Below, in pieces: positions 50,859-54,920 of a stretch of DNA of 60,605 bases. This DNA comes from a virus. Its lineage: Duplodnaviria > Caudoviricetes. The notes under the pieces are model-generated. The model ran no database searches and had not been told where the DNA came from. It saw only the letters and a list, made by a program, of their open reading frames with translations. Both the position numbers and the translations under genes were made by a program. The stretch's first letter is position 1; each line of letters opens with the position of its first letter. The DNA is taken from positions 1 through 60,605 of IMG/VR virus record IMGVR_UViG_3300036770_004227. One strand, written 5' to 3'.

Positions 50859-51872
50859 TTGAATTTGTTCAAAAAAGCAATAGTATTCACTGACCTCCAT
50901 TTCGGCCTAAAGTCCAACAGTCAACTTCATAACGAGGATTGTTTGTCGTTCATTAAATGGGCTACCGAAATGGGCAAGAAAAATGGCTGTGACACCGCAT
51001 TATTTTTGGGTGATTGGAACAACAATCGTGCATCAATAAACATCCTGACACTAAACTATAGCATTAAAGCCCTAGAACATCTTAATGCTAATTTTGACCG
51101 GGTGTTTTTCATACCTGGCAATCACGATCTTTACTATCGTGATAAGCGTGACGTTCAAAGTGTAGAGTGGGCAAAACATCTAAAGAATGTCACTATCTGT
51201 AATGATTGGGTTAACGAGGGTGACGTCATCATTGCACCTTGGTTAGTAGGTGATGATCATAAGAAAATATCAAAACTTCGTGGTCGGTATACATTCGGTC
51301 ATTTTGAACTACCGCACTTCTTAATGAATGCTATGGTAGCCATGCCTGATCATAGCGAAATCAAGCGTGAACATTTTTCACATTTTGATCATGTGTTCAG
51401 CGGACATTTTCATAAACGACAAACTTCTAACAACATAACCTATATCGGTAATTGTTTCCCACATAATTATGCTGACGCAGGTGATGATGAACGTGGAGCA
51501 ATGATTCTTGAATGGGGTGGTAAACCAGAATATCATTCGTGGCCAGATCAACCAACATATCGTGTGCTATCTCTTAGCGATCTACTGAATCGCACTGACG
51601 AAGTTCTGAAGCCAAAGATGCATGTTAGAGTAAACATTGATATTGACATTTCTTACGAAGAGGCCAACTTCATCAAAGAGACTTTCGTCAAGTCTCATGA
51701 TTTGCGAGAAATTTCTATTCTACGAAACAAAAACACAGACATGGATCAATACGAAATGAAGGGCAATGTAAACTTCCAGACCGTTGATCAGATTGTTACT
51801 AATCAACTTAACTTAATAACCAGTGAACAGTATGACTCATCACTATTGTTGGATCTATATCGAGGACTATAA
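50859..51872 (+). CDS. gp47: Recombination nuclease subunit (gp47 / Mre11 / SbcD)
   Basis: DLHFG, GD, GNHD, GHFE, SGHFH metallophosphoesterase motifs; GGAG SD and TTG start. Confidence 0.93.
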   Translation: MNLFKKAIVFTDLHFGLKSNSQLHNEDCLSFIKWATEMGKKNGCDTALFLGDWNNNRASINILTLNYSIKALEHLNANFDRVFFIPGNHDLYYRDKRDVQSVEWAKHLKNVTICNDWVNEGDVIIAPWLVGDDHKKISKLRGRYTFGHFELPHFLMNAMVAMPDHSEIKREHFSHFDHVFSGHFHKRQTSNNITYIGNCFPHNYADAGDDERGAMILEWGGKPEYHSWPDQPTYRVLSLSDLLNRTDEVLKPKMHVRVNIDIDISYEEANFIKETFVKSHDLREISILRNKNTDMDQYEMKGNVNFQTVDQIVTNQLNLITSEQYDSSLLLDLYRGL

Positions 51873-51879
51873 GTAATCT

Positions 51880-53658
51880 ATGTTGAAAATAAAAAATATC
51901 ACTGCGAAGAACTTCTTATCTATTGGCAATCAAACGCAGGCAGTTAACTTTGACAGAGAAAATTTAACATTAGTTCTAGGTAGCAACATAGACTTAGGCG
52001 GCGATGATGCTGGTAGTAGAAATGGCACTGGAAAGACTGCTATCATCAATGCTATAAGTTATGCTTTCTACGGGCAAGCCCTGACTAACATCAAGAAAGA
52101 TAACCTAATTAACAAAACTAACGGTAAAAACATGTTAGTTACAGTTGATTTTGAATGCGGTAATATCTCATATCGTATTGAGCGCGGCAGAAAGCCCAAT
52201 GTGTTGAAGTTTTTTGTCAATAATCAAGAGGTAGAGAGTTCGGACGATAATAGCCAGGGTGATAGCAGAGAAACCCAGCATGAGATAGAAAAACTCATCA
52301 ACATGAAGCACGATATGTTCAAGCATATTGTAGCACTTAACACATACACTGAACCATTCTTGAGTTTACGGGCAAATGATCAGCGAACAATCATTGAACA
52401 ACTTTTGGGTATTACCCTATTGAGTGAGAAGGCAGAATCTCTTAAGGAACAGGTACGAATCACAAAAGATGCCATACAGCAAGAAGAATTTAGGATCAAA
52501 GCAGTCAAGGATGCTAACACCCGTATCCAGGATCAGATTGATTCTACAAAGCGACGTCAGAAATTGTGGCTACAAAAGCATAAAGAAGATCTACAGGCAC
52601 TGACTACTGCATACGAAGAGTTATTAAAGTTAGACATTGATGAAGAGTTGGCAGCACATAAGTCCCTACAACTCTATACTGACAAGTCTAAAAAGTTAAA
52701 AGATCTAGAAAAGACCAAGAAGTCTCATGATAAAGATTTACTTCGTGAACAAAAATCACTGAAGCAATTGAATGTTGACATCAAAGCAATCAAAGATCAC
52801 AAGTGCCATAGTTGTGGTCAAGCACTACATGATGATAATCACGAAAAATTACTACAATCTAAGTCCGAGGAACTAGCAAAAGTAGAGAAGGCCATAGAGA
52901 AAATTGAATCTGAAATCAGTGATATAAATCAAAAAATTGAAAAGATCGGTGATTTAGGTGATGAACCTACTGTTTTTTACAGCAAAGAAAGTGAAGCGGT
53001 AACTCATAAGAGTAGCCTAGATCATCTACTTACGCAGATAGAAACTAAAAAGTCTGAGTCTGATCCTTATGCTGATCAGATTGCCGAGATGGAAAAGGAT
53101 GGTATAGAGGAAATTTCCTATGACTTGATTAATGGATTAGTGAAAGTACGTGATCATCAAGAATTTTTGCTTAAACTGTTAACCAACAAGGATAGTTTCA
53201 TCCGTAAGCAGATTATAGATCAGAATTTGAACTTCCTGAATGCCAGACTGGCTTTTTATCTAAACGACATTGAACTACCACACACTGTCAAGTTCAACAA
53301 CGATTTGTCTGTCAGTATTGAGGAGTTGGGACGAGAGCTAGACTTTGATTCACTGAGTCGTGGTGAACGGAACAGGCTTATTTTAAGTTTAAGTTGGGCA
53401 TTCCGTGATGTATGGGAAAGTTTATATCAACCAATCAATTTGTTATTCATTGATGAATTAGTTGACTCTGGTATGGACAGTGCAGGTGTAGAAAACTCAT
53501 TAAAGATTTTGAAAAAAATGTCACGTGCTGGTGGTAAATCTGTATGGTTAATTAGCCATAAAGATGAATTATTGAGTAGAGTTAATAATATAATGTACGT
53601 AGTAAAAGAAAGTGGCTTCACACGATATAGTTCTGACGTTGAGGTGGTAAAAAATTAA
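51880..53658 (+). CDS. gp46: Recombination ATPase subunit (gp46 / Rad50 / SbcC)
   Basis: Walker A NGTGKT, coiled coil, zinc hook CHSC, signature LSRGE, Walker B LFIDE, ISH. Confidence 0.95.
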   Translation: MLKIKNITAKNFLSIGNQTQAVNFDRENLTLVLGSNIDLGGDDAGSRNGTGKTAIINAISYAFYGQALTNIKKDNLINKTNGKNMLVTVDFECGNISYRIERGRKPNVLKFFVNNQEVESSDDNSQGDSRETQHEIEKLINMKHDMFKHIVALNTYTEPFLSLRANDQRTIIEQLLGITLLSEKAESLKEQVRITKDAIQQEEFRIKAVKDANTRIQDQIDSTKRRQKLWLQKHKEDLQALTTAYEELLKLDIDEELAAHKSLQLYTDKSKKLKDLEKTKKSHDKDLLREQKSLKQLNVDIKAIKDHKCHSCGQALHDDNHEKLLQSKSEELAKVEKAIEKIESEISDINQKIEKIGDLGDEPTVFYSKESEAVTHKSSLDHLLTQIETKKSESDPYADQIAEMEKDGIEEISYDLINGLVKVRDHQEFLLKLLTNKDSFIRKQIIDQNLNFLNARLAFYLNDIELPHTVKFNNDLSVSIEELGRELDFDSLSRGERNRLILSLSWAFRDVWESLYQPINLLFIDELVDSGMDSAGVENSLKILKKMSRAGGKSVWLISHKDELLSRVNNIMYVVKESGFTRYSSDVEVVKN

Positions 53659-53686
53659 TTGATCATTTTACCGTCATAAATACAAT

Positions 53687-54103
53687 GTGACGTGGCTTTT
53701 TGAAGACAAAATTATTGAGACACTACCAGACGATGTAGTTGGGTTTGTATATATAATAACCAACAAGTTGTCTGGACGAAAATATATAGGCAAAAAATTA
53801 TCTAAATTCAAGAAAATAAGACTAAAAACATCAAGGTTAAAAAACGGCACTAAAAAGAAATCAAAAATTAGATATGAAATCGATAGTGACTGGCAAATTT
53901 ATTATGGTTCAAACTCGGTATTATCAGAAGAAGTAAAAAATTTAGGCTCAGAAAATTTTAAAAGAGAAATATTAAGGTATTGTTATTCAAAAAATGAATT
54001 AAATTATTACGAAGCAAAGTATCAATTTGATTATGGTGTTTTGCTTAGTGGTGACTGGTACAACGAATGGATATCGGTCAAAGTACGTAAACTAAAGATT
54101 TAA
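53687..54103 (+). CDS. Minimal GIY-YIG family nuclease (catalytic domain only)
   Basis: GFVY.ITN..SGRKYIGKK, YYGS, F.REIL, E...Q, YN; 138 aa with no NUMOD/HTH tail; TAAATA at 53677-53682. Confidence 0.8.
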   Translation: MTWLFEDKIIETLPDDVVGFVYIITNKLSGRKYIGKKLSKFKKIRLKTSRLKNGTKKKSKIRYEIDSDWQIYYGSNSVLSEEVKNLGSENFKREILRYCYSKNELNYYEAKYQFDYGVLLSGDWYNEWISVKVRKLKI

Positions 54104-54119
54104 TTCACATCAAGGTTAT

Positions 54120-54700
54120 TATAGCGACGCACCGCAAACTGCGACATCTACAGGCAAAATCTCAAACAGTGTATGGCTAGCATCGGCCTAAATTCGGATG
54201 CTCTAAACCTGGACCTCGGGTCGCAGGGACGAAAACCTTGGCGCTGTACCAAGAACTCAATCACTATCCTTTACAGGACGAAGATCGCCAATCCCGCGGT
54301 TTGATTGTTTGAACAGGTTTTATGGGTAAAAAGACGTGATAGCGATATCACACGGTTATATCAAAGGACAGCATCATTGATATAGCCCGCCGTTGTAAGA
54401 AAGACTGGATGAGTAGGTACCGGATAACCGCCTGCGTTACATTTCCTGTGTGTCAAAACACAGATGTTGTTGTAGTCCTGATGCTGTGTGGTTGTCAACT
54501 CAGATGAAAACACCACTTCATAGTAGAAATACTATGATTTTTTTCGCCCTTCGTGGGCGAAAGAGAGGCAGTAATCTAGATGAATGGTATCTCTTCTGAT
54601 TGGTTAATAATTATTCTTTAAGAAAAGATCGTCTAGTTAATTGAAGGAGCGATAGCGACTGAAAATTAACGACGACGATATGGGTGCGCCGCACCCATCA
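54120..54700 (+). ncRNA. Candidate large structured non-coding RNA (~580 nt)
   Basis: No ORF in the track; GC higher than flanks; more than 10 stems incl. GNRA-capped GTGATA-GCGA-TATCAC and TCATAGTA-GAAA-TACTATGA; 9-bp loop/distal pairing ACAGCATCA/TGATGCTGT; strand inferred from GNRA loops and G-U pairs. Confidence 0.7.
54680..54698. terminator. GC-rich hairpin between convergent units
   Basis: ATGGGTGC-GCC-GCACCCAT; no long U tract. Confidence 0.45.
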
Positions 54701-54701
54701 A

Positions 54702-54920
54702 TTATATGAATAACAATCCAGATTTATTGGTCTTTTCAATATTCTCTTCAATTATCTTATTGATAATTTCTCTATCCTGATAACCTATTTCAAATGCTTG
54801 ATCTAGTGTTACTCCACCTCGCATATACCAAACCAATTTATATATGTATGATCTTAACGCCTTTGACTCTTTTTCGTATGAATTTATTAATTCAACTACT
54901 TCTTCATTTGTTAGAGTCAA
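54702..54920 (-). CDS. Baseplate hub assembly factor (gp51-like); probably translated as a -1 frameshift extension of the upstream gene
   Basis: WYMRGG.T......L...DR..I motif; no start ATG or SD; frame open back through a T TTT TTC slippery site. Confidence 0.6.
   Translation of the reverse strand: MTLTNEEVVELINSYEKESKALRSYIYKLVWYMRGGVTLDQAFEIGYQDREIINKIIEENIEKTNKSGLLFI

Follow-up and report, generated by a model that had tools for sequence, protein, structure and literature searches.

A large pseudoknotted RNA, predicted behind a GIY-YIG nuclease gene in T4-like freshwater phages, extends the Polynucleobacter-1 motif

The subject of this study is a region of about 600 nt that lies between a 138-aa GIY-YIG nuclease gene, ending at 54103, and a minus-strand open reading frame (ORF) at 54702 in a viral contig of 60,605 nt (IMG/VR record IMGVR_UViG_3300036770_004227, hereafter the window). 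The window carries T4-type genes and represents an estimated ~17% of a genome, and no ORF of more than 51 aa is present in the region. As judged from folding, conservation and covariation, the interval 54150-54698 on the plus strand encodes a real, large, structured and pseudoknotted RNA, the expression of which is predicted. Among the sequencing runs listed with matching sequence none is of RNA, and four that were inspected contain contigs of relatives, from libraries of probable DNA origin. Its novelty is partial: the 5' 136 nt belong to a known Rfam family, and the other ~400 nt, three quarters of the molecule, are undescribed in searchable sources. The reading favoured here, to which a probability of about 0.5 is assigned, is that of an independent, large non-coding RNA that would act in trans, accompanied by a resident homing-type endonuclease.

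The known part is the Polynucleobacter-1 motif (RF01718), all 141 positions of which are matched by 54175-54310 with a score of 114.7 bits and an E-value of 3.5e-24 (cmscan; the gathering score of the family is 37 bits). A preliminary description of this DNA had proposed an undescribed RNA; since the Rfam search that it asked for matched RF01718, to which the first four of its stems belong, that part of the novelty is removed, and the proposal stands for the ~400 nt that lack an Rfam match. For 54311-54700 no Rfam family was matched, even at E up to 10. Across the whole region RF01718 alone exceeded its gathering score and nothing relevant appeared at E up to 10, so that no match to tRNA, tmRNA, RNase P, GOLLD, ROOL, HEARO, OLE or raiA was obtained; ARAGORN likewise gave 0 tRNA or tmRNA genes, as the preliminary description had anticipated for tRNA, tmRNA and RNase P. 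Comparison of the region with cultured phages by blastn returned a single match of 49 nt, located inside the nuclease gene. In the literature the motif is named in one paper alone (Weinberg 2010, PMC2864571), a table of which places it among likely RNAs with a probable cis-regulatory role and gives Burkholderiales and fresh water or estuary as its sources; the supplement may hold alignments that bear on novelty. The main text of Fremin 2023 contains neither GIY nor Polynucleobacter, and its supplement may hold candidates that bear on novelty. At the level of titles and abstracts, nothing was found on a GIY-YIG protein paired with a structured phage RNA.

The interval 54150-54700 folds with a minimum free energy of -169.5 kcal/mol (z = -4.89), a value that none of 100 shuffled sequences attained. 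Conservation among 58 non-redundant copies spans ~54150 to ~54600, with more blocks up to the hairpin at 54680-98, and homologues of the 390 nt downstream of the motif sit right behind the motif in many viral loci. The RNA is ~550 nt long in the window, compared with 430-510 nt in most relatives. For analysis of the structure, 57 non-redundant phage RNAs were aligned (alignment A1; L074, with a divergent 3' part, was left out) and helices were derived from pair statistics on A1, the RNAalifold fold of the raw MAFFT alignment being partly wrong. In the resulting structure of 90 pairs in 17 helices, 95.9% of cells are paired, against 81.8 ± 0.3 in shuffles (0/500 reach 95.9%), a percentage that is inflated because the structure was derived and counted on the same alignment. 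The compensatory-pair count is not inflated in this way: change on both sides is observed at 63 of the 90 pairs, against 46.1 in shuffles. The covariation score is 0.442 compared with 0.177 in shuffles, and it falls to 0.047-0.085, with 35-40% paired, when partners are slid by 1-3 columns. Within the RF01718 part, compensatory pairs amount to 4/5 in the first hairpin, 4/6 in the outer stem and 4/6 in the last hairpin.

Three pseudoknots can be recognized (Table 1). The best-supported helix of the whole RNA is PK-B, which the preliminary description had proposed as an exact complementarity in the window and which is compensatory at 7/7 pairs, with 96.2% paired. The other two are new. PK-A joins a short strand to the loop of helix D (3/5 compensatory, 97.9% paired), and PK-0 joins the leader to the third hairpin loop of the Rfam motif (3/5 compensatory, 97.3% paired), a pairing which places the 5' end of the RNA upstream of the Rfam model. 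Several further elements of the preliminary description hold in the window: all of its stems are present in the sequence, the gap behind the GIY-YIG gene is free of ORFs, and G+C across 54100-54600 is 0.42-0.49 against 0.25-0.33 on both flanks. An orphan Rfam motif, now 16 years old, turns out to form the 5' portion of an RNA that ranks among the larger structured ones so far described in phages, and this RNA now has a testable architecture of three pseudoknots.

In the 3' domain of the RNA, two hairpin loops show the same 12-nt word, apart from CUC in the first and UCU in the second ahead of the hexamer; this domain also includes a terminal hairpin and the conserved loop GAGCGnnAGCGAA. The two similar loops, already observed in the preliminary description, turned out to be kept identical. 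In mutual-information analysis, several of the top signals came from column pairs that do not pair, and these correspond to the same base at matching positions of the two loops. The hexamer that follows CUC in loop 1 equals the hexamer that follows UCU in loop 2 in 57/57 RNAs, through eight haplotypes (GGAUAA 19, AGAUGA 14, AGAUAA 8, GCAUAA 7, GGAUGA 6, and GAAUGA, GAAUAA and ACAUAA 1 each). Only three positions vary, mostly by transitions, and the difference between CUC and UCU is kept everywhere. When changes were placed on a tree of the remaining RNA sequence, at least 13 were counted at position 1 of the hexamer, each of them shared by both loops, and at least 16 for the haplotype as a whole; these counts might be smaller if blocks have recombined, though not below the number of haplotypes. 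The distance between the loops is ~50-75 nt. The same relation is observed in bacterial copies of the RNA, with loop 1/loop 2 hexamers AUCGAA/AUCGAA, AGCGAA/AGCGAA and GGCGAA/GGCGAA, one copy having a single difference (AGCAAA/UGCAAA). The identity of the loops across haplotypes suggests that both are read by one common partner, which would tell G from A. Two distant loops held identical through at least 13 joint changes are an unusual signal, pointing to a bivalent, base-reading partner.

Candidates for this partner among known motifs and within the RNA were considered in turn, and no known motif accounts for the identity: for each of a tRNA anticodon mimic, a CsrA site, a -10 box and a start-codon mimic there are haplotypes that do not fit. 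When assessed by hand, antiparallel pairing between the two loops is poor and not conserved and leaves the identity unexplained. The linker UUGUUUGA (54305-12) is the only recurrent candidate inside the RNA; it fails to compensate in the GCAUAA haplotype, and it cannot enforce identity because it pairs via G.U and A-U alike. No recurrent 9-mer or reverse complement matching the loops was found in the flanking DNA sampled per locus. In one RNA (L342), which still stands behind a GIY-YIG gene, loop 2 is the only twin loop left, loop 1 and the intervening hairpin being absent.

The association between RNA and nuclease was followed from both sides. A scan of viral contigs by the motif pattern CTAAACCTGG, 8-16 nt, CAGGGA gave at least 120 matches; among the matches listed, and with the window included, a true RNA copy is present in 105 of 121 loci. 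The family is abundant in freshwater viral metagenomes, as judged from three viral-contig scans, the match count of each being a lower bound. In 97 of the 105 RNA loci a nuclease homologue (42-61% identity) lies directly upstream on the same strand; the remaining eight comprise three without upstream DNA, four with the nuclease at a distance of 0.8-0.9 kb upstream, and L028, in which there is none. From the nuclease side, the best 80 of at least 583 viral-contig relatives (51-63% identity) include 68 with the RNA downstream by nhmmer and four more with a variant RNA recognized by eye, together with four that have less than 180 nt of downstream DNA and four without RNA downstream; the RNA is therefore present in 72 of the 76 assessable close homologues. 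In L272 no RNA follows the nuclease, and the 3' domain of the RNA is found upstream on the other strand. These two sets of loci overlap in contigs and are not independent. A second viral scan, by a pattern of the 3' core, added 110 new loci among the matches listed: 63 with RNA and GIY-YIG, four with RNA without GIY-YIG, seven without upstream DNA, five cut at the 3' end and 31 without twin loops (of three of the latter inspected, two are chance matches in ORFs and one is the single-loop RNA L342). GIY-YIG thus stands beside the RNA in 63 of the 67 assessable new loci.

In most loci the stop codon of the nuclease lies -2 to +27 nt from the start of RF01718, so the leader overlaps the end of the ORF; the window is an outlier, with a gap of 71 nt between stop codon and RF01718 start. 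The order of genes is not always maintained. In at least 8 of the 80 nuclease-side loci, and in L008, L020, L029 and L093 (some of them sharing contigs), nuclease and RNA are 0.8-1.2 kb apart, and ~10% of loci are interrupted by another ORF; in six gaps (L262, L276, L279, L281, L293 and L305) an orphan ORF of 238-335 aa is present, with no Pfam or PHROG match. In two of the four RNA loci of the second scan that lack GIY-YIG (L378:3963-4481 and L405:9348-9851) the gene directly before the RNA encodes a PDDEXK_15 phage endonuclease (PF24608; E 2.5e-29 and 1.4e-26), and in a third, L361, it is a MazG-like gene. Co-occurrence is therefore not obligate: the RNA occurs without this nuclease in bacterial loci and in 4/67 assessable phage loci, and the nuclease family occurs without the RNA in cultured phages. 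The preliminary description had suggested a partnership of nuclease and RNA; tight co-occurrence in phages speaks for this part of its proposal, whereas the bacterial loci, the PDDEXK loci and the distant homologues do not fit a strict one.

The 138-aa protein matches Pfam PF19835 (SegE_GIY-YIG) with E 1.7e-28, residues 3-129 aligning to profile positions 1-123. The match to the domain model is full-length; in comparison with T4 SegE and its Pfam family, nothing follows the domain, so that a separate DNA-binding region is absent; T4 Seg proteins are ~200 aa long. An AlphaFold2 model had a pLDDT (predicted local distance difference test) of 85.2, and its top three Foldseek matches are the I-TevI catalytic domain, with probability 0.93-0.98 and target TM-scores of 0.62-0.64 but E-values of 0.1-0.2. 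A sequence search of the PDB with the nuclease profile gave nothing below E 0.2. Residues Y22, Y33, G35, R93, E94 and N126 are invariant in 16 homologues and include candidate counterparts of the catalytic residues of I-TevI (Tyr of GIY, Tyr of YIG, Arg, Glu and Asn). The reading frame is open in 98/98 assessable loci (138-162 aa), with 0/98 pseudogenes, and the median ratio of nonsynonymous to synonymous substitution rates is 0.14 (451 pairs, 75 distinct genes). These figures indicate that the nuclease is functional and under purifying selection. Homologues with 35-46% identity are found at other loci in Methylophilales phage Melnitz, Sinorhizobium phage phiN3 and Stenotrophomonas phage Moby, where the next gene is 29-207 nt away and leaves no room for the RNA. 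Many RefSeq phage records, and also phrog_447, label the small GIY-YIG protein 'NAD synthetase', which looks like a propagated mis-annotation.

Outside phages, copies of the RNA were observed in contigs from Comamonadaceae and 'Nitrospira lenta' metagenome-assembled genomes, in Limnohabitans and in three small Burkholderiales genomes, the last of which were read for RNA architecture only. The bacterial architecture consists of the 5' domain, an ACCGCC core, the twin loops, a GAGCG..AGCGAA loop and the terminal hairpin. It is complete, twin loops included, in L155 and L179, and also complete in L243, L246 (the second Limnohabitans copy), L330 and L331; the first Limnohabitans copy, L230, breaks off within a hairpin after ~150 nt, in the manner of an integration site. 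By tblastn, no significant GIY-YIG match was obtained in the three chromosomal loci (L155, L179 and L230) among four motif-bearing bacterial loci, and no GIY-like ORF is present in the ORF lists of three larger bacterial regions, including those with L243 and L246. The neighbours are a divergent DUF6641 gene upstream and, in some loci, a short tyrosine recombinase downstream; one protein of each kind was profile-tested (DUF6641, E 5e-13; Phage_integrase, E 1.5e-24) and the other neighbours were assigned by eye. No mention of DUF6641 was found in the literature. RF01718 is above its cut-off in 4/151 sampled genomes of the order, an occurrence that fits an accessory, mobile gene, and two bacterial genomes have two RNA copies each.

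Many nhmmer matches cover the 3' domains alone, which implies that some RNAs join the conserved core and twin-loop part to other 5' domains. Variant B (L260, L307, L322 and L327) starts with GGUUGGCGGGCCAGUUU and variant C (L261, L264, L361 and L405) with GUUUGGUCGAGGCnGCUCGAC; both keep the 3' part, with twin loops, a GAGCG..AGCGAA-type loop and the terminal hairpin. From these sequences the RNA family looks modular and wider than RF01718.

In the reading favoured here, the RNA would be made by read-through from the nuclease gene, a route suggested because the conserved leader overlaps the ORF end in most loci, and would end at the terminal hairpin. As a rigid scaffold working in trans, it would present its two identical loops to a pair of copies of a single base-discriminating partner; possible candidates for the latter are a dimeric protein, a nucleic-acid site that is repeated, and an adjacent RNA copy within an assembly. 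The GIY-YIG gene would be a resident, free-standing endonuclease of homing type that settled at a conserved RNA locus and is retained for favouring inheritance of the locus, being no subunit of the RNA. The habitat of the family comprises T4-like freshwater phages, in which its position is constant, behind gp47-gp46 and ahead of a baseplate gene, and integrase-bearing Burkholderiales islands. Free-standing homing endonucleases show just such a pattern, in which different nuclease families alternate at one conserved locus and one family is scattered over other loci. The textbook example is T4 SegB, described as a GIY-YIG homing endonuclease in a tRNA cluster (PMC2330249) and, in a further report, as able to benefit the phage (PMC13096335). 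The situation here is similar in that a free-standing GIY-YIG gene stands beside conserved RNA genes of a T4-type phage, and differs in that the protein has ~140 aa, is near-fixed rather than patchy, and has an ORF end that overlaps the RNA leader. Several observations weigh against this reading. Homing genes are usually patchy, whereas this one is near-fixed (97/105 and 63/67 among the matches listed) with 0/98 pseudogenes; a leader that overlaps the ORF end would be expected of a two-part unit; the nuclease has no separate DNA-binding domain; and no promoter-like word was found between nuclease and RNA. Moreover, no covarying partner of the twin loops was found within the RNA or in the sampled locus flanks, and neither a cleavage site, a nuclease-free target allele nor a transcript was seen.

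Alternatively, nuclease and RNA would form one ribonucleoprotein, with the RNA as scaffold or specificity element and the twin loops reading the target, like the omega RNAs of IscB and TnpB. The two-way linkage within the clade (97/105, 72/76 and 63/67), the overlap of leader and ORF end, the strong purifying selection without pseudogenes, a protein with a basic beta-hairpin arm and no DNA-binding domain, and loops that vary in concert like a specificity code are all consistent with such a complex. It is nevertheless considered unlikely, since the same RNA architecture occurs in bacterial loci in which no GIY-YIG was found, an unrelated PDDEXK nuclease takes the same position in two loci, other ORFs separate nuclease and RNA in ~10% of loci, and equally small SegE-like proteins of cultured phages have no such RNA next door. 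As regards a variable guide segment that would match target DNA, loop variation is confined to three positions, mostly transitions, and no complementary 9-mers recurred in the flanks, to which the search applied. In comparison with HEARO or omega RNAs and IscB or TnpB, a structured RNA beside, and overlapping the end of, a small nuclease gene is a shared feature; the nuclease fold here is GIY-YIG, no variable guide segment stands at an element boundary, the locus is syntenic and not transposed, and the RNA is also found without the nuclease and with an unrelated one. A new kind of RNA-dependent DNA endonuclease, in which a minimal GIY-YIG nuclease would work with this RNA as its partner, is held to be improbable. 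Were it true, the rigid pseudoknotted core would hold the basic arm and the twin loops would read a repeated or two-stranded target, three loop-base changes would retarget the enzyme, and the bacterial copies and PDDEXK loci would represent the same scaffold recruited by other effectors. The near-constant company of the endonuclease offers a clean natural case for asking whether nucleases beside RNA genes are mere passengers, like SegB, or make use of the RNA, like IscB; in both events the outcome would inform the biology of phage competition and the search for new RNA-dependent enzymes.

The RNA could also act by itself, as a homo-oligomeric assembly in which the twin loops would make contacts, inside one subunit or from one to another, that require the same bases on both sides. 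In size, in its ornate pseudoknotted build and in its habitat of phages and islands it matches the general class of GOLLD, ROOL and OLE, large pseudoknotted RNAs of phages, prophages and islands. These three are reported to form homo-oligomers (PMC12286853). The covariation of loop identity would be expected from symmetric same-base contacts, and with G.U pairs counted, loop 2 (AUCURGAU) is complementary to itself. To our knowledge, twin identical loops and nuclease linkage are not features of GOLLD, ROOL or OLE. There is no Rfam sequence or structure match to those families at E up to 10, and antiparallel pairing between the loops is poor and leaves their identity unexplained; this reading is regarded as doubtful. 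A cis-acting role, either as 3' untranslated region of the nuclease mRNA (in stability, processing or translation) or as 5' leader of the next gene, is much less probable. Co-transcription with the nuclease gene is likely, and the motif was tabled as probably cis-regulatory in the table of the original paper (PMC2864571), an assignment contradicted by the gene order of the window: the interval is not followed as a 5' untranslated region would be, ~390 nt more of conserved RNA following the motif and then convergent minus-strand genes, with no plus-strand gene next. In relatives the RNA and the gene that follows are set apart by the terminal hairpin and a late-promoter word, known leaders fall far short of ~500 nt and three pseudoknots, and the bacterial copies have different neighbours. 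Finally, a self-splicing intron, another ribozyme or a replication-origin transcript is hardly credible. The faint likeness to group I P7 and the position beside the recombination genes gp46 and gp47 are all that recommends it; no intron or ribozyme family is matched at E up to 10, no gene is interrupted (gp46 is intact, and the genes that come next lie on the opposite strand), and base pairing in the RNA, something that an R-loop primer can do without, is under selection.

In relation to Polynucleobacter-1 itself, the RNA shares the whole model and the habitat of Burkholderiales and fresh water given for the motif (PMC2864571). It differs in that the model of 141 nt is the 5' quarter of a conserved RNA of ~450-550 nt, in that PK-0 pairs a leader outside the model into the third hairpin loop of the motif, and in that some relatives keep the 3' domains behind another 5' domain.

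Table 1. Positions of the RNA elements and adjacent genes in the window
Feature	Position	Strand	Basis or remark
gp47-like phosphoesterase	50859-51872		
gp46-like SMC/AAA protein	51880-53658		
SegE-type GIY-YIG nuclease gene, 138 aa, catalytic domain and basic beta-hairpin arm	53687-54103	+	PF19835, AlphaFold2 model
Whole conserved structured RNA	54150-54698	+	ends placed from conservation and terminal hairpin
Conserved leader word AGGCA	54152-54156	+	conservation; recurs as GGGUA at 54325-29 in the window
PK-0 5' strand ACAGU	54166-54170	+	pairs with 54243-54247; A1 columns 36-40/120-124
5' domain, RF01718	54175-54310	+	cmscan
Stem AGCAUC/GAUGCU	54179-84/54197-202	+	window sequence
Stem CCUGGACC/GGUCGCAGG	54208-27	+	window sequence
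Stem CUUGG/CCAAG	54237-53	+	window sequence
PK-0 3' strand GCUGU	54243-54247	+	loop of third hairpin of RF01718 domain; helix 1
Stem CAAUCA/UGAUUG	54258-63/54302-07	+	window sequence
Invariant linker UUGUUUGA	54305-12	+	recurrent candidate twin-loop partner
Hairpin H1 GUGAUA-GCGA-UAUCAC	54336-54351	+	A1 columns 233-236/252-256; 4/4 pairs compensatory, 82.9% paired
Hairpin H2, 11 bp, loop forms PK-B	54354-54387	+	helix 10; 8/8 counted pairs compensatory
PK-B 5' strand, H2 loop ACAGCAUCA	54368-54376	+	pairs with 54479-54487; A1 columns 281-287/436-442
PK-A 5' strand GUUGU	54392-54396	+	pairs with AUAAC 54424-54428; helix 12
Helix C 5' strand, pairs with 54475-54478	54407-54410	+	helix 13; 5/5 pairs compensatory
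Helix D GUAGGU/GCCUGC, encloses near-invariant GGUACCGGnnnACCGCC core	54413-54435	+	helix 14, invariant A1 columns
Inserted hairpin, some lineages only, most relatives without it	54446-54463	+	A1 gap columns
PK-B 3' strand UGAUGCUGU	54479-54487	+	helix 11
Twin loop 1 AACUC-AGAUGA-A (AACUCAGAUGAA)	54497-54508	+	hairpin closed by 54488-92/54512-16
GAAA-loop hairpin, lineage-specific insertion, most relatives without it	54518-54537	+	A1 gap columns
Hairpin H5 UUUCGCCC/GGGCGAAA, between twin loops	54542-54562	+	helix 15; 4/8 pairs compensatory, 97.1% paired
Twin loop 2 AAUCU-AGAUGA-A (AAUCUAGAUGAA)	54573-54584	+	same hexamer as loop 1 in 57/57 RNAs
3' stem AUCGUC/GACGAU	54628-54679	+	window sequence; family helix 16, 5/5 pairs compensatory
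Conserved loop word GAGCGAUAGCGA inside 3' stem	54647-54658	+	kept in bacterial copies too
Terminal hairpin, likely RNA 3' end	54680-54698	+	helix 17; 6/7 pairs compensatory
72-aa ORF without Pfam family	54702-54920	-	3' end 3 nt from terminal hairpin of the RNA

The synteny of relatives is gp47, gp46, 0-2 small ORFs, nuclease, RNA and then a variable gene or the baseplate gene. In the window the genes beyond the gap are convergent on the minus strand, one of them encoding a T4_baseplate protein, and the terminal hairpin is also at the 3' end of the convergent minus-strand gene. ORFs of 72-73 aa at the position of 54702-54920 (-) are seen in several relatives (L012, L018, L019 and L044). In relatives the terminal hairpin is followed by TATAAATA and then by the next gene.

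The late promoter that had been proposed ahead of the nuclease did not hold up in relatives. In the window CATAAATA lies 3 nt upstream of the GTG start of the nuclease, but in 54 representative loci NATAAATA occurs in the zone before the nuclease start in one only, the window itself, and the late-promoter word has no enrichment there. Enrichment of TATAAATA is observed only just after the RNA, with 11 exact occurrences and 37 of NATAAATA at +350 to +450. In one sub-clade (L009, L012, L014, L017, L018 and L036) the word (G/C)ATAACTA(T/C) stands 6-14 nt ahead of the nuclease ATG. In another the nuclease begins with a GTG directly behind the stop codon of the preceding ORF (TGAGTG), an arrangement that suggests translational coupling.

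Minor features of the RNA are also recorded. The leader word AGGCA recurs after the 5' domain as AAGGCAAAAAGA and is tandemly repeated (UAGGCACA, several times) ahead of some variant RNAs (L361 and L405); it may be a processing or protein-binding site. In the 5' domain, A1 columns 144, 156 and 188 (window 54267, 54279 and 54299) covary as C/U/A versus U/C/G, which may simply mark two clades, and the small CC/GG hairpin switches between a GAAA-type and a UUUACA-type loop with the closing pair shifted. A viral contig of 6.9 kb from another sample (L062) is 100% identical to the window at 54104-54175 (72 nt) and 54311-54700 (390 nt).

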